DNA of 14,773 nt from Escherichia phage vB_EcoM-640R3: sequence record ON470613; one strand, 5' to 3'. The notes beneath the pieces are model-generated. The model was given only the letters and a program-made list of their open reading frames with translations, did not search any database and was not told the DNA's origin. Positions 4,108 to 14,773 of the stretch are shown in pieces. A program made the position numbers and the translations under genes. The stretch's first letter is position 1; each line of letters begins with the position of its first letter.

Positions 4108-5181
4108 ATGCGCCAGGAAACCCGCTTTAAATTTAATGCCTACCTGTCCCGTGTTGCCGAACTGAACGGCATCGACGCCGGTGATGTGTCGAAAAAATTC
4201 ACCGTTGAACCGTCGGTCACCCAGACCCTGATGAACACCATGCAGGAGTCCTCTGACTTTCTGACCCGCATCAACATTGTGCCGGTCAGCGAAATGAAAG
4301 GGGAAAAAATTGGTATTGGTGTCACCGGCTCCATCGCCAGCACCACCGACACCGCCGGTGGCACCGAGCGTCAGCCGAAGGACTTCTCGAAGCTGGCGTC
4401 AAACAAGTACGAATGCGACCAGATTAACTTCGATTTTTATATCCGCTACAAAACGCTTGACCTGTGGGCGCGTTATCAGGATTTCCAGCTCCGTGTCCGT
4501 AACGCCATTATCAAACGTCAGGCTCTTGATTTAATCATGGCCGGTTTTAACGGTGTGAAGCGTGCCGAAACCTCTGACCGCAGCAGTAACCCGATGCTGC
4601 AGGATGTGGCGGTCGGCTGGCTGCAGAAATACCGCAATGAAGCCCCGGCGCGCGTGATGAGTAAGGTCACTGACGAGGAAGGCCGCACCACCTCTGAGGT
4701 TATCCGCGTGGGTAAGGGCGGTGATTATGCCAGCCTTGATGCACTGGTGATGGATGCGACCAACAACCTGATTGAGCCGTGGTATCAGGAAGACCCTGAC
4801 CTTGTGGTGATTGTGGGGCGTCAGTTACTGGCGGACAAGTATTTCCCCATCGTTAACAAGGAGCAGGACAACAGCGAAATGCTGGCCGCTGACGTCATCA
4901 TCAGCCAGAAACGCATCGGTAACCTGCCAGCGGTACGCGTCCCGTACTTCCCGGCGGATGCGATGCTCATCACGAAGCTGGAAAACCTGTCCATCTACTA
5001 CATGGATGACAGCCATCGCCGCGTGATTGTGGAAAACCCGAAACTCGACCGCGTGGAGAACTACGAGTCAATGAACATTGATTACGTGGTGGAAGACTAC
5101 GCCGCCGGTTGTCTGGTGGAAAAAATTAAGGTCGGTGATTTCTCCACACCGGCTAAGGCGACCGCAGAGCCGGGAGCGTAA
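4108..5181 (+). CDS. N: Major capsid protein, P2 gpN-like
   Basis: 357-aa ORF (MRQETRFKFNAYLSRVAELNGIDAG...), RBS AGGA upstream, immediately after O and before M as in P2. Confidence 0.9.
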   Translation: MRQETRFKFNAYLSRVAELNGIDAGDVSKKFTVEPSVTQTLMNTMQESSDFLTRINIVPVSEMKGEKIGIGVTGSIASTTDTAGGTERQPKDFSKLASNKYECDQINFDFYIRYKTLDLWARYQDFQLRVRNAIIKRQALDLIMAGFNGVKRAETSDRSSNPMLQDVAVGWLQKYRNEAPARVMSKVTDEEGRTTSEVIRVGKGGDYASLDALVMDATNNLIEPWYQEDPDLVVIVGRQLLADKYFPIVNKEQDNSEMLAADVIISQKRIGNLPAVRVPYFPADAMLITKLENLSIYYMDDSHRRVIVENPKLDRVENYESMNIDYVVEDYAAGCLVEKIKVGDFSTPAKATAEPGA

Positions 5182-11354: not shown

Positions 11355-11958
11355 TTCGCGCCTGCTGCCGACCGGCTCATCACCGCTTGAAGTTGCCGCC
11401 GCAAAAGCCTGTGCGGAAATTGAAAAAACGCCGGTCAGTATTCGTGAACTGTGGAACCCGGATACCTGTCCGGCAAATCTGCTGTCGTGGCTGGCGTGGT
11501 CATTTTCGGTTGACCGCTGGGATGATAAGTGGCCGGAAGCGACAAAACGCGCTGTTATCCGCGATGCGTATTTCATTCACTGCCATAAGGGCACTATAGG
11601 CGCAATCCGGCGTGTGGTGGAGCCGCTCGGCTATCTGATTGAGGTGAGGGAGTGGTGGCAGCTCAACGAGGAACCGGGGACGTTCCGCATCGTTGTTGGC
11701 GTGCTTGAGCAGGGTATTACCGAGGAAATGTATCAGGAGCTGGAGCGTCTCGTTGCTGATGCAAAACCTGCAAGCCGCCATCTGACGGGACTGGCTATCA
11801 GTTTAAGTACAACCGGCAACATTTTTGCCGGTGCGGGATGCTATCACGGCGACGCCCTGACGGTTTATCCCTACACCCCGGAGGCCATTATTGTCGGAGG
11901 GGATTATTTCCCGGCCTCGGCCATTCATTTAATTGATAACCTGAGAGTAAACGCATGA
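11347..11958 (+). CDS. I: Baseplate protein, P2 gpI-like
   Basis: 203-aa ORF overlapping the J 3' end by 8 nt and the H start by 4 nt. Somewhat longer than the P2 gpI I recall (about 176 aa). Confidence 0.75.
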   Translation: MSDSRLLPTGSSPLEVAAAKACAEIEKTPVSIRELWNPDTCPANLLSWLAWSFSVDRWDDKWPEATKRAVIRDAYFIHCHKGTIGAIRRVVEPLGYLIEVREWWQLNEEPGTFRIVVGVLEQGITEEMYQELERLVADAKPASRHLTGLAISLSTTGNIFAGAGCYHGDALTVYPYTPEAIIVGGDYFPASAIHLIDNLRVNA

Positions 11959-13250
11959 CAGTGAAATACTACGCCATTCTGACTAATCAGGGCGCAGCAC
12001 GGCTGGCTAACGCGACGATGCTTGGCAGTAAGCTGAATCTGACGCAAATGGCCGTTGGTGATGCGAATGGTGTCTTGCCGACACCAGACCCGGCACAGAC
12101 AAAACTGATTAATCAGAAACGCATTGCACCGCTGAATCTTCTGAGTGTTGACCCGAACAACCAGAGCCAGATTATTGCGGAGCAAATCATCCCTGAGAAC
12201 GAGGGCGGATTCTGGATCCGTGAGATTGGGCTTTATGATGATGAAGGCGTACTCATTGCGGTGGCCAACTGCCCGGAAACGTACAAACCGCAGTTACAGG
12301 AAGGCAGTGGTCGTACCCAGACTATCCGCATGATTCTGGTTGTCACGAATATCGAAGCCATCACGCTGAAAATCGACCCGTCGGTGGTACTGGCGACCCG
12401 TAAATATGTGGATGATGAAGTCCTGGAATTAAGGCTGTATGTGGATGACCAGATGAGAAACCACATTGCCGCACAGGATCCTCATACCCAGTATGCACAG
12501 AAACATAATCCGACATTTACCGGAGAACCAAAAGCCCCGACGCCTGCCGCAGGAAATAACACCACGCGGATTGCGACCACTGAGTTTGTTCAGGCCGCTA
12601 TTACCGCTCTGATTAACGGCGCGCCAGCCACGCTGGACACACTGAAAGAAATTGCCGCAGCCATTAACAATGACCCGAAATTCAGCACCACTATTAACAA
12701 TGCGCTGTCAGGTAAGCAGCCACTGGATGAGACGCTGACTCATTTGAGCGGAAAGGATGTTGCCGGCCTTCTCGCATACCTTGGTTTGGGAGAAACGATA
12801 AATAGAGCCTCCAGAGCTATGCAGAAATCGGCTAATGGATCTGATATTTCTGATGTATCAGCCTTCCGAAATGCGCTCCAGTTAGGGACCGCTGCAACAC
12901 GAGATGTTGGAGCAGATAATGCCTCGAAGTTACTGGATTTAGACAGCTTCAGGTCAATGATGTCAGGTAATGGCTACATCTACATTCCATGCATTGCGAC
13001 GACAGGAAACCCGGTGAAACTTATGTTGCAGTGGGGAACGGTGGCAACACAAAAGGGAGCTGATGCTGGATATGCCTTACCATTTGCTTTTCCCTATGCA
13101 GGCTTGTTTGCGACCGGAAACCGTGGAACATCTGGCTACAATGCCGCGATGAATGTGCGTATTGCCAGCAGAACGCATATCAGTATTCAGAACTGGTCGC
13201 CATCCGGAGAGGGCACCGAAGATTGTTGTTTTATCGCGCTGGGGTATTAA
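11955..13250 (+). CDS. H: Tail fibre protein, P2 gpH-like constant N-terminal part fused to a variable receptor-binding C-terminal module
   Basis: 431-aa ORF. The N-terminal ~280 aa has the conserved P2 H / Mu S type tail-fibre N-terminus (...GFWIREIGLYDDEGVLIAVANCPETYKPQLQEGSGRTQTIRMILVV...). The C-terminal ~150 aa begins right after the recombination site at 12769-12794 and is AT-richer by eye. Confidence 0.85.
   Translation: MTVKYYAILTNQGAARLANATMLGSKLNLTQMAVGDANGVLPTPDPAQTKLINQKRIAPLNLLSVDPNNQSQIIAEQIIPENEGGFWIREIGLYDDEGVLIAVANCPETYKPQLQEGSGRTQTIRMILVVTNIEAITLKIDPSVVLATRKYVDDEVLELRLYVDDQMRNHIAAQDPHTQYAQKHNPTFTGEPKAPTPAAGNNTTRIATTEFVQAAITALINGAPATLDTLKEIAAAINNDPKFSTTINNALSGKQPLDETLTHLSGKDVAGLLAYLGLGETINRASRAMQKSANGSDISDVSAFRNALQLGTAATRDVGADNASKLLDLDSFRSMMSGNGYIYIPCIATTGNPVKLMLQWGTVATQKGADAGYALPFAFPYAGLFATGNRGTSGYNAAMNVRIASRTHISIQNWSPSGEGTEDCCFIALGY
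12769..12794 (+). repeat. Left crossover site of invertible tail-fibre segment (hix/gix-like 26-bp site inside H)
   Basis: TTCTCGCATACC-TT-GGTTTGGGAGAA. Its inverted partner at 14720-14745 shares 21/26 positions, including an identical 14-bp arm TTGGTTTGGGAGAA in the same codon phase (encodes LGLGE in H, VGLGE in the minus-strand ORF). Confidence 0.65.
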
Positions 13251-13252
13251 GA

Positions 13253-13669
13253 ATGAATAAATTTTATAAAGGCTCTTTCTATCCGAAAGCACTAAAAGAG
13301 GTATATATCAGCGCCGGTTCATGGCCTGAAAATGGCGTTGATGTTGATGATGAAACAATAGCAATTTACACAGGCGTAGCGCCAGAAGGCAAAACGCTGG
13401 GGGCTGATAAAAATGGTAATCCTGCATGGATTGATATCCCGCCACTCTCCGCTGAACAACAGATTATTCAGGCTGAACAGAAAAGAACGGTATTGCGTTC
13501 AATGGCTGATAAGGAAATAGTCTGGAGACAGGATGCTTTTGATGCGGAAATCGCGACGGCAGAAGAAACCGCCGCGTTGTCTGAATGGAAAAAATATCGG
13601 GTCTTACTGATGCGCGTTGATACATCAAATCCCGTCTGGCCTACGCCTCCGGGGGAGCAGGCCAATTGA
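13253..13669 (+). CDS. G: Tail fibre assembly chaperone, P2 gpG-like
   Basis: ORF 13223..13669. Chosen start is ATG at 13253 (MNKFYKG...), 138 aa, 3 nt after the H stop. C-terminus ends in the WPTPPG motif typical of tail-fibre assembly proteins. Confidence 0.8.
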   Translation: MNKFYKGSFYPKALKEVYISAGSWPENGVDVDDETIAIYTGVAPEGKTLGADKNGNPAWIDIPPLSAEQQIIQAEQKRTVLRSMADKEIVWRQDAFDAEIATAEETAALSEWKKYRVLLMRVDTSNPVWPTPPGEQAN

Positions 13670-14261
13670 TATCCGGCGCGGTGCTGGTATCAGTTACCGT
13701 CACCGCGTCAATGTAATCCAGCACGACGTTAAGCCGGGTGGTTTCTGTCTGCGTCAGTTTTCGCCCGGCCTGCAATTTCAGTTGAATCAGATTAATGGAA
13801 GCCATTGCAGTATCAATCAGTGACTGTCGCTGTGTTTCTGCCGCGCCTACTGCGGCGCTATGCTGTGCCTCAGTATCTGTCACCCATTTCTCACCATCCC
13901 ATTCATCGTATGGCGTTAACGGGGCGACAGTGGTTGTGTTTTCAGGGTAATCCCCCGGAGTGGTGATTTCTGCTGCCTCACGGGTTTCTGTGTTATAGAC
14001 TGTCTCACCCCGATGGTCCGGCACGTACTCCCACGCGGTCAGGTCGGCTGTGCGGCAAATTGCATAACCAGCCCGCCTTTCCCCGGGGGCATCAGTGCAT
14101 GAATGTGCAGGAAGGCCAACGCCCACAGCCAGATATTCGGTTGACGTGCAAAGGTATTCCCGCGTCTTATTATCGTAGCTGTGGACAACAACCTCTCCTG
14201 CAACTGTTGCCAGCCGCGATTCATTCAGCACCGCTGTAGTCATGGTTTTCTTGCTCATCAT
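13641..14261 (-). CDS. Alternative tail fibre assembly chaperone (Tfa/U'-like), minus strand
   Basis: 206-aa ORF ending in INWPAPPEA, the conserved tail-fibre-assembly C-terminal motif. Its start ATG overlaps the stop of the upstream minus-strand fibre ORF (ATGA), and its 3' end overlaps the G 3' end by 29 bp, convergent. Confidence 0.8.
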   Translation of the reverse strand: MMSKKTMTTAVLNESRLATVAGEVVVHSYDNKTREYLCTSTEYLAVGVGLPAHSCTDAPGERRAGYAICRTADLTAWEYVPDHRGETVYNTETREAAEITTPGDYPENTTTVAPLTPYDEWDGEKWVTDTEAQHSAAVGAAETQRQSLIDTAMASINLIQLKLQAGRKLTQTETTRLNVVLDYIDAVTVTDTSTAPDINWPAPPEA

Positions 14262-14773
14262 GCAGCCCTTACGATGTAGTTAAATGCAATGTTACGTGGC
14301 CTTGCATAACCCAGATACTGAATCCCCCAGGCTCCCACTGGAACGGGGTTCCAGATATGTTCTGTAGGTATACTTTTCGCTCTGAGAATATCTGAATTGG
14401 TTTCAGTTTTATCCCATCCCAGCAGGGCAATGTCGTTTACCGAAAACTGCACCACGCTGTCGGGTGATATATTGGCTTCCTGAACCAGATAAGAGCCTTT
14501 TTGCCACGACAACAACGTCCGGCTACTGTCCACTCCGCGCCCGTCATCCCAGCCACGAATAAATTCACCACGTAAATCAGGCAATATATTTGTCGGGTAA
14601 GCCTTTGCCAGTTCCGGGTATTCTTCAGCAGAAAATGCCGCCCCGTTGCATTTCAGCCAGCCTGTTGGCAGTGTGGCTGAAGGCCACGGAACAGGCACAC
14701 CAACGGGTAATACAGAGCCTTCTCCCAAACCAACGTTTATGAAAATGCAGAGATAACGGGCAAGTGGCATCAT
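14258..14773 (-). CDS. Alternative tail-fibre C-terminal receptor-binding module with phage tail-collar-like domain (Sv'-like); promoterless cassette, 5' end at or beyond the window edge
   Basis: 171-aa minus-strand ORF open to the window end. The motif LPTGWLKCNGAAFSAEEYPELAKAYP resembles the phage tail collar domain. The crossover site lies at codons 10-18, so the functional product is predicted only after inversion fuses it to the H N-terminus. Confidence 0.7.
   Translation of the reverse strand: MMPLARYLCIFINVGLGEGSVLPVGVPVPWPSATLPTGWLKCNGAAFSAEEYPELAKAYPTNILPDLRGEFIRGWDDGRGVDSSRTLLSWQKGSYLVQEANISPDSVVQFSVNDIALLGWDKTETNSDILRAKSIPTEHIWNPVPVGAWGIQYLGYARPRNIAFNYIVRAA
14720..14745 (-). repeat. 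Right crossover site of invertible tail-fibre segment (hix/gix-like)
   Basis: Plus strand reads TTCTCCCAAACC-AA-CGTTTATGAAAA; minus strand reads TTTTCATAAACG-TT-GGTTTGGGAGAA. The AAACC-AA-(C/G)GTTT core resembles the Hin/Gin/Cin/Pin site architecture as I recall it. Confidence 0.65.

Follow-up and report, generated by a model that had tools for sequence, protein, structure and literature searches.

The P segment of e14, a cryptic prophage of E. coli K-12, is arranged as stfP-tfaP / tfaE-stfE with pinE as its invertase gene. PinQ, PinR, and PinE have been reported to act in trans on the e14 repeat TTGGTTTGGGAGAAGG and invert it; 33% of e14 P segments, for which active Pin enzymes exist, are inverted, and StfE2 and StfP2 of e14 reportedly protect K-12 (PMC12529663). 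Related switches are the G segment of Mu (gixL/gixR, Gin) and the C segment of P1 (cixL/cixR, Cin). In P2-like prophages of EPEC E2348/69, an invertase and inverted repeats give rise to alternative tail-fiber C-termini (Goldberg et al. 2014, PMC4272514). Coexisting orientations at these loci were demonstrated by paired-end mapping and PCR, one of the two loci has three repeats and four variants, and read-level phase variation has been reported both in P2-like prophages and in e14 (PMC4272514).

An invertase is also encoded by a number of deposited P2-like phages, namely Peduovirus pro483, S164, MET_P1_103_31, “P2” of O157:H43 T22, Fels-2, and SEN8. No publication on the pro483 switch came up in a literature search for that name.

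Here, we analyzed a stretch of 14,773 nucleotides from Escherichia phage vB_EcoM-640R3 (record ON470613), referred to as the window, in which a first-pass annotation had proposed a Mu G-like tail-fiber switch within a P2-like tail gene block. We conclude, with a probability of about 0.88, that a P2-like prophage of the pro483 type carries here an invertible cassette for host range that belongs to the Din family (Gin/Cin/Pin type) and is homologous to e14 P, and that this particular copy is essentially locked by ISEc22. The novelty implied by the first-pass annotation does not stand, since P2-like phages with this switch have been deposited (pro483, S164, Fels-2, and others) and phase variation has been demonstrated (PMC4272514).

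Gene organization of the cassette

The window prophage follows the P2 late-gene order, Q P and O N M L X Y K lysA/B/C R S V W J I H G ... FI FII E E' T U D. A P2-like (Peduoviridae) gene order with a P2-family capsid and a GPO scaffold was found in the ORF map of the window and in strain 4/2-1, where RefSeq annotates an identical locus. Canonical P2 reads H-G-fun(Z)-FI, with fun(Z) at the place where the window prophage has tfa'-Hv'-invertase, and this is the only difference in order. A search of canonical P2 H/G at up to three mismatches found no pix-like site; P2 also lacks an invertase, in agreement with the earlier statement that it has no such switch.

Table 1. Features of the invertible cassette, in window coordinates
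Feature	Coordinates	Strand	Details
Hc, constant N-terminal part of tail-fiber gene H	11955..12780	+	codons 1–275 and first base of codon 276
Left crossover site (within H)	12769–12794	+	TTCTCGCATACC-TT-GGTTTGGGAGAA
Invertible segment	12783..14731		1949 bp if exchange is at the central TT
Hv, currently expressed variable C-terminus of H (gp53-like tip)	12783..13250	+	PF21882
tfa, G-like tail-fiber assembly chaperone of the expressed module	13253..13669	+	PF02413
tfa', alternative chaperone	13641..14261	−	PF02413; RefSeq start 14243
Hv', alternative variable fiber C-terminus (tail-collar module), now unattached to H	14258..14731	−	PF07484
Right crossover site	14720–14745	−	minus strand reads TTTTCATAAACG-TT-GGTTTGGGAGAA
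Short constant leader opening the silent-slot ORF	14734..14773	−	MMPLARYLCIFINV

The constant part Hc matches Pfam PF12571, “Phage tail-collar fibre protein, N-terminal” (aa 1–150, E = 5.8e-62). The first 753 nt of H are 96–98% identical to H of P2-like phages, and Hc is the same in flipped genomes. Between the 26-bp sites lie two convergent sets of fiber-tip and chaperone modules (Table 1). In the expressed set, Hv matches Gp53-like_C (aa 356–431, E = 1.1e-7) and tfa, annotated as “tail fiber assembly protein” (WP_001032315.1), matches Caudo_TAP (E = 9.7e-32). Hv shares 92–98% nucleotide identity with modules of the P1-like phage vB_EcoM-813R1 and of phage phi458, and this homology begins at window positions 12777–12781, within the crossover site. 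In the silent set, tfa' matches the same chaperone family (E = 2.6e-31), overlaps tfa on the opposite strand by 29 bp, and shows 76% amino acid identity to e14 TfaE and approximately 87% nucleotide identity to HK97 tfa. Hv' matches Collar (E = 2.7e-14) and has 57% amino acid identity to e14 StfE. Its leader, MMPLARYLCIFINV, aligns with the leader of e14 stfE, MPFACYFFIFINV, and is the counterpart of it; after inversion, the leader is joined to the gp53-like module in a product annotated as WP_229014653.1. The Pfam profiles bear out the tail-collar and, twice over, the tail-fiber assembly families named by the first-pass annotation, which had also recognized that the modules are arranged as Sc | Sv-U / U'-Sv', in the manner of Mu G, P1 C, and e14 P; this is supported here. 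A search of NCBIfam found no specific family for the fiber or chaperone proteins.

The layout is identical to that of e14 P, including the 29-bp tfa overlap and the position of the invertase gene. However, e14 is a lambdoid remnant, whereas the window belongs to a P2-like myovirus in which H supplies the constant part, and e14 StfP and TfaP are only 24–31% identical to the gp53-like module and its chaperone. In pro483 and other P2-like phages, the gene order I-H-tfa-tfa'(−)-collar(−)-invertase-FI is the same as in the window, whereas the cargo modules of pro483 differ, with identities of 72% over the whole of H, 33% for tfa, and 56% for the collar module. Mu and P1 belong to other phage families; in P1, moreover, cin is found on the opposite side with respect to S, and the segment is 4.2 kb long. 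The likeness to the EPEC E2348/69 loci, which come from another strain, is drawn from their published description.

Crossover sites

The two sites are in inverted orientation and alike at 21 of 26 positions. They share the 14-nt inner arm TTGGTTTGGGAGAA, a core that equals the repeat reported for e14 (PMC12529663). In a repeat search, 12766–12794 / 14720–14748 came out as the top inverted repeat of the region. At up to two mismatches, the 14-mer arm occurs exactly twice in the window, once on each strand, compared with 0.10 expected occurrences, and two matches were reached in one of 200 shuffles. On the aligned strand, both sites have TT as the central dinucleotide. Codon 276 of H (start 11955) is CTT at 12780–12782, followed by GGT TTG GGA GAA, and codon 14 of the minus-strand ORF (start 14773) is GTT at 14734–14732, followed by the same GGT TTG GGA GAA. 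These properties, namely a 26-bp inverted pair with 21/26 identity, one common 14-bp arm, and a shared codon phase, had all been reported by the first-pass annotation and are confirmed here.

Outer and inner half-sites are symmetric at 10/12 and 8/12 positions in the two 26-bp sites, and the half-sites agree at 9 to 11 of 12 positions with a consensus built from the sites of the window together with pix, cix, and gix. The alignment to known sites that had been suggested earlier gave 26/26 matches between the right site and the right pix site of e14 and 23/26 between the left sites; both 26-bp sites of pro483 are the same as those in the window. The inner half-site matches P1 cix at 10/12 and Mu gix at 8/12 positions, and the central TT is that of cix, unlike Mu, which has TC as central dinucleotide and 34-bp perfect repeats. 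Judged from these alignments, the window's crossover sites are of the pix/cix type. By homology with the annotated crossover point of P1 cixL and cixR, exchange would be expected at the central TT. The earlier claim that the crossover was resolved to the base goes beyond the data: comparison of natural flipped and unflipped copies narrows the exchange only to the 14 shared bases, 12781–12794 / 14720–14733.

Interruption of the adjoining invertase gene by ISEc22 in genomes identical to the window

The absence of a serine invertase gene nearby had been named, together with reads in one orientation only, as an observation that would speak against a switch; such a gene adjoins the right site, just outside the window. 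It is of the Gin/Pin type and begins on the plus strand 28 bp after the last base of the window (L001 11847), 68 bp from the center of the right site. With the IS removed in silico, the gene encodes 197 aa comprising PF00239 Resolvase (E = 3e-52) and PF02796 HTH_7 (E = 5e-13), which is the make-up of a small serine recombinase of approximately 185–200 aa with a resolvase domain and a C-terminal HTH. The protein matches Mu Gin (PDB 3uj3/4m6f) with E = 7e-95 and is identical to PinE at 161/184 positions (87%), to Cin at 148/186, and to Gin at 150/191 (80%); the invertases of Mu and P1 are 80–81% identical to it. Those of the P2-like phages named previously are 96–99% identical, except for Fels-2 with 86%. 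NCBIfam gave sub-threshold matches only.

In the lineage of the window, ISEc22 (2455 bp, with an 8-bp target duplication CAACAAAT) is inserted after nt 33 (codon 11) and parts codons 1–11, including the catalytic Ser9, from the rest of the invertase. The remaining annotated ORF of 200 aa reads ...RLPTNDQ compared with the native ...RVSTNDQ, so that Ser9 is lost; in genomes identical to the window, the locus has no enzyme of its own with an intact Ser9. This residue is kept (YVRVSTNDQ) in the intact allele of strain 720632. Each of the 30 genomes listed as a 100% match to the window region carries the IS in its invertase gene, and the same junction occurs in 81 genomes, which include all 30 listed exact matches. 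The window ends 106 bp before the IS position, and the exact matches suggest that its own source carries ISEc22 as well. In contrast, the invertases in the P2-like phage records examined are annotated as uninterrupted, and the interruption also sets the window lineage apart from e14. The locus is a disrupted member of the Din family rather than a non-member.

The 5' end of the invertase gene harbors the recombinational enhancer in P1, and we propose a candidate enhancer at the same place in the window locus. Nucleotides 19–90 of the invertase gene match the annotated P1 enhancer at 58/72 positions, and a Fis-like 15-mer at nt 71–85 is conserved in pin, cin, and gin. ISEc22, at nt 33/34, lies within the enhancer-homologous stretch and would fall in the presumed proximal Fis site, the Fis sites being placed by homology and spacing only.

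Orientation of the segment in natural genomes

E. coli EJN001 carries the window's prophage with 12783–14731 reverse-complemented, with 0 mismatches over 10,880 bp. Compared with strain 4/2-1, this is an exact flip, IS included, again with 0 mismatches over 10,880 bp, and every boundary within 12781–12795 / 14719–14733 fits the comparison equally well. The in-frame inversion product predicted by the first-pass annotation, with the collar module on H and tfa' downstream, is present in public genomes: in natural flipped genomes, the Hc-Hv' fusion is annotated as a 433-aa “phage tail protein” (WP_069067655.1). Inversion swaps in-frame fiber C-termini, each with its own chaperone.

Strains EBJ001 and 11899A_LBHALD are also flipped and carry the IS. 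With the invertase intact, strain 720632 (99.9% identity) is flipped and strain 600055 (99.8% identity) is unflipped. Both orientations, with the exchange inside the site core, are known from comparison between genomes. Among IS-bearing prophages, about 58 are unflipped and 3 are flipped, where the figure of 58 is partly inferred from 59 genomes at a coverage of at least 80%, of which only the top match can be IS-free and near-identical. With ISEc22 splitting the invertase and orientations at about 58:3, the switch is probably frozen for the most part, and the earlier view that this phage probably alternates between two receptor specificities does not fit these numbers or the IS in all 30 listed exact matches. 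The three flipped IS-bearing genomes show that “locked” is not absolute, and the sequences indicate that at least one inversion occurred after the insertion of ISEc22.

Candidate helper recombinases in EJN001

Inspection of the canonical positions showed that e14, Rac, and Qin are all absent from EJN001. Megablast found no second invertase, with one invertase-like place per IS-bearing chromosome; this search was made at the nucleotide level, and its reach is that of recombinases detectable by blastn. A second, weaker blastn place was rejected as a helper gene, being consistent with a pinH pseudogene remnant of roughly 170–240 nt. Next to ypjA, the EJN001 annotation lists a partial “recombinase family protein.” The only plasmid of this strain (IncX3 pNDM5) has one serine recombinase, whose 24% identity is too low for a credible Din invertase. 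As the cause of the flip, RecA-type recombination between the 14-bp repeats was judged very unlikely, although sequence alone cannot separate it from site-specific exchange.

Discussion

The sequences show both crossover sites, both sets of modules, the invertase gene, and the two orientations in otherwise identical prophages. One 26-bp site closes the constant part of H, which makes up its N-terminal two-thirds, and the inverted partner lies 1.9 kb downstream. We propose that a small serine invertase, encoded directly right of the segment, would cut both sites at the central TT and rotate the segment. Rotation would replace the gp53-like tip with the tail-collar tip, in frame, and bring the matching chaperone downstream. 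The window's copy would probably be unable to flip by itself and would be essentially locked with the gp53-like tip expressed, and its rare flipping may depend on a recombinase supplied in trans.

That the 26-bp match is merely coding sequence left over from modular exchange between fiber genes, with no site-specific inversion, is next to inconceivable, although the match does lie in coding sequence (LGLGE in both ORFs) and the same motif occurs at mosaic joints between phage families. Such a history is at odds with an exact inversion product that has no mismatches and confines the exchange to the 14-bp core, with a right site identical at 26/26 positions to one proven to recombine in e14 (PMC12529663), with the adjoining invertase gene, and with a 14-mer found twice where 0.10 occurrences are expected. 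The opposite reading, a fully autonomous and active switch that uses its own invertase to alternate freely between the two fiber tips, draws on the intact state of all cis elements inside the window, on near-identical IS-free relatives in both orientations, and on the three flipped IS-bearing genomes. It is nevertheless improbable given the IS after codon 11 in every listed 100%-identical genome, the loss of Ser9 through the change from ...RVSTNDQ to ...RLPTNDQ, and an orientation ratio of about 58:3 compared with 33% inverted e14 P segments (PMC12529663).

The cassette could also have been domesticated by the host, such that the silent-slot ORF is expressed alone and masks a surface receptor against other phages, as has been reported for StfE2 of e14, with the orientation being selected for defense rather than for virion host range. 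This ORF, a 13-aa leader followed by a variable module, starts with an ATG of its own, its leader is a homolog of the e14 stfE leader, both StfE2 and StfP2 are reported to be protective in K-12 (PMC12529663), and the prophage is decaying in the lineage, with the IS in the invertase gene and an ISEc12-associated deletion in the prophage of about 20 genomes. Domestication nonetheless seems very improbable: no sigma-70-like promoter preceded the leader in a promoter scan that extended to the IS boundary immediately to its right, the late genes both inside and downstream of the window have the intact appearance of those of a functional phage, and the module is only 57% identical to StfE. A largely locked Din-family cassette remains our preferred reading. 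As to what flips it, it is conceivable, if rather unlikely, that orphaned pix-type switches are acted upon by a phage during transient infection or by a recombinase that is unrelated or very distant. If true, host-range and defense cassettes of prophages would stay switchable as a shared “public” resource long after the loss of their own enzyme and proper enhancer.

As a bet-hedging device for phage host range, the locus is of a textbook type, and its occurrence in a P2-like prophage adds little to the switches already deposited and experimentally shown. With the natural before-and-after genomes, an inversion that had been predicted only from the sequence is validated base for base. Moreover, the knock-out of the invertase by the IS has produced naturally locked variants in both orientations, which could be used for receptor mapping of the two fiber tips or for studying cross-talk between prophage invertases. 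Judging from strain and plasmid names, the host lineage is a clinically important one of E. coli, comprising ST167-type carriers of NDM-5.

Gene content and crossover sites

The window comes from a P2-like prophage and spans its late region (Q/P, followed by O, N, M, L, X, Y, and K, the lysis genes, R, S, V, W, J, I, and H), and the RefSeq annotation of an identical locus gives the same gene order. It matches E. coli 4/2-1 at 100% identity over 11,819 bp, and the region 11955–14773 is 100% identical in at least 30 complete genomes among the matches listed. Pfam searches, proposed in the first-pass annotation for the two fibre modules, assigned them to the tail collar and gp53-like C families and both chaperones to PF02413. 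The two chaperone genes converge, and their 3′ ends share 29 bp (13641–13669).

Both predicted 26-bp crossover sites are present, in H (12769–12794) and on the minus strand (14720–14745). They match at 21 of 26 positions and share an identical 14-nt arm, which lies, as proposed, in the same codon phase in H and in the minus-strand ORF. This 14-mer occurs exactly twice in the window, once per strand (expected number, 0.10). The claim that the crossover is resolved to the base is not borne out: the data place the exchange only inside the 14-bp core, and its assignment to the central TT comes from P1 homology, through the annotated crossover points of cixL and cixR. Aligned to known sites, the pair resembles pix, cix, and gix, and the e14 repeat TTGGTTTGGGAGAAGG (PMC12529663) includes the core sequence of the window.

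Features of the switch locus and identity of its crossover sites to known sites
Feature	Coordinates	Strand	Annotation or identity
H	11955–13250	+	431 aa
H N-terminus			PF12571 (Pfam)
H C-terminus			PF21882, gp53-like C (Pfam)
Tail-fibre assembly gene, directly after H	13253–13669	+	PF02413
Second tail-fibre assembly gene	13641–14261	-	PF02413
Minus-strand ORF	14258–14773	-	171 codons; PF07484 (tail collar)
ISEc22	L001 (4/2-1 locus) 11880–14334; window-equivalent 14834 onward		Frameshifted transposase
Deletion junction with ISEc12 (IS21 family)	L007 3370–6041		E. coli strain ST167, NZ_CP093919.1
e14 pix, right site			26/26 identical
e14 pix, left site			23/26
P1 cix, inner half-site			10/12
Mu gix, inner half-site			8/12

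The invertase gene is interrupted by ISEc22

The lack of a nearby serine-invertase gene had been named, together with reads of only one orientation, as evidence against a switch. Such a gene is present: in the identical locus of 4/2-1, 28 bases beyond the window end lies a gene start encoding MLIGYVRVSTN, the opening residues of a Gin/Pin-type serine invertase. The gene is broken after codon 11 (nt 33/34) by ISEc22, a 2455-bp element of the IS66 family with the 8-bp target duplication CAACAAAT at both flanks, and 3′ of the element follow the remainder of the gene and the sheath gene FI. In silico removal of the IS restores a protein of 197 aa that contains Resolvase and HTH_7 domains. This protein matches Mu Gin crystal-structure sequences with E = 7e-95 and is identical to PinE, Cin, and Gin at 161/184, 148/186, and 150/191 positions, respectively.

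The ORF remaining after the insertion reads RLPTNDQ where the native sequence is RVSTNDQ, and the nucleophile Ser9 is therefore lost; position 9 is the residue mutated to Ala in Gin structure 3uj3. At L001 14301–14903, RefSeq lists the “recombinase family protein” WP_062914736.1 (200 aa), with a non-canonical ATC start within the right end of the IS. This protein is an invertase remnant without Ser9, and its ORF is best regarded as a pseudogene. Wild-type invertases of the Din class require an enhancer that contains two Fis sites (PMC3798978). Nucleotides 19–90 of the invertase gene match the enhancer annotated in P1 cin at 58 of 72 positions, and the IS falls within this stretch; the distal Fis-like 15-mer (nt 71–85) is conserved, and judged by spacing the IS appears to hit a putative proximal Fis site. 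Hence, the locus is without an enzyme of its own, and its enhancer is probably partly lost.

Inverted forms in natural genomes

We searched complete E. coli genomes with a query consisting of 11955–12782, the reverse complement of 12783–14731, and 14732 onward. The predicted inversion product was found in strain 720632 (99.9% identity, invertase intact) and, at 100% as far as the IS junction, in EJN001, EBJ001, and 11899A_LBHALD; the fusion gene is annotated, in flipped genomes, as a tail protein of 433 aa. The whole EJN001 locus (10,880 bp including the IS) differs from that of 4/2-1 only in the orientation of the segment (0 mismatches), and any exchange point in 12781–12794/14720–14733, but none beyond, fits this pair. 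The segment inversion predicted from the window is thus real.

Strain 600055 carries the unflipped form (99.8% identity) with an intact invertase. Its genome (NZ_CM129037.1) holds two related invertase-bearing cassettes, at 17,852–21,297 and 1,445,935–1,448,578, of which the unflipped one matches the window at 99.8% identity and the one of flipped type at 94%, and so offers a natural case in which a single invertase could serve two switches. In 11899A_LBHALD (NZ_CP130447.1), approximately 1 Mb separates the prophage halves flanking ISEc22 (2,609,363–2,612,242 and 1,620,191–1,620,728), which lie on opposite strands. This arrangement suggests that a large part of the chromosome was inverted between IS copies.

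State of the switch in the IS-bearing lineage

The ISEc22 junction is identical in 81 complete E. coli genomes, including 30 of the 30 listed exact matches to the window region. These comprise about 58 unflipped genomes (the 59 with at least 80% coverage minus the best match, 600055, the sole possible IS-free one), three flipped ones, and about 20 with a deletion that runs from replication gene A to 93 nt into the collar fragment and removes all the late genes of the window. Because ISEc12 lies at the junction of this late-gene deletion, prophage decay in the lineage is stepwise. The 58:3 ratio is consistent with a frozen switch and contrasts with e14, in which 33% of P segments are inverted (PMC12529663). 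The suggested alternation between two specificities is not supported for the copy in the window, whose invertase gene is, judged from the exact matches, interrupted.

One IS insertion cannot give both orientations, and at least one flip therefore came after it; the interest of the locus rests mainly on this flip. Invertases are well known to act in trans. The e14 segment is inverted by each of PinQ, PinR, and PinE, and the Salmonella H segment is acted on by Fin of Fels-2 (PMC12529663). In EJN001, the three prophages inspected as sources of a helper invertase (e14, Rac, and Qin) were all absent, and the broken gene was the only match by megablast. A weaker second place found by blastn fits a pinH remnant, and the sole plasmid was rejected as donor, its serine recombinase being only 24% identical. 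The donor may have been a helper prophage that was later lost, a phage infecting transiently, or a recombinase of the chromosome that has diverged. Between potC and potB, EJN001 carries an HK97-like lambdoid prophage (1,799,604–1,845,250; L010/L011) with iss and, in its side-tail-fibre region, IS remnants and a group II intron (ltrA); this prophage has no invertase.

Relation to known systems

The reading of the locus as a switch of the Mu G, P1 C, and e14 P type proved correct in kind. The e14 P region is laid out in the same way, and its tfaP/tfaE overlap (4518–4546 of e14 locus L004) is exactly 29 bp long, like that of the chaperone genes in the window. Peduovirus pro483 shares both 26-bp sites, the gene order, and an invertase of 96% identity but has other fibre modules. 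The switch is not new in kind, being known from e14, Mu, and P1 and deposited in P2-like phages; read-level data have shown that P2-like prophages undergo phase variation (PMC4272514). Canonical P2, as the first-pass annotation held, lacks such a switch: its order is H-G-terminator-fun(Z)-FI, with neither invertase nor site, and the cassette thus sits in the fun(Z) slot.

The expressed module is 92–98% identical to modules of a P1-like phage and phage phi458, and the silent module matches HK97 stf/tfa at about 87% identity. The mosaic joints in H are consistent with module exchange among phage families at the recombination site: homology to the P1-like phage and phi458 starts at 12777–12781, within the left crossover site, and homology with other P2-like H genes stops at 12707, about 60 nt upstream of that site.
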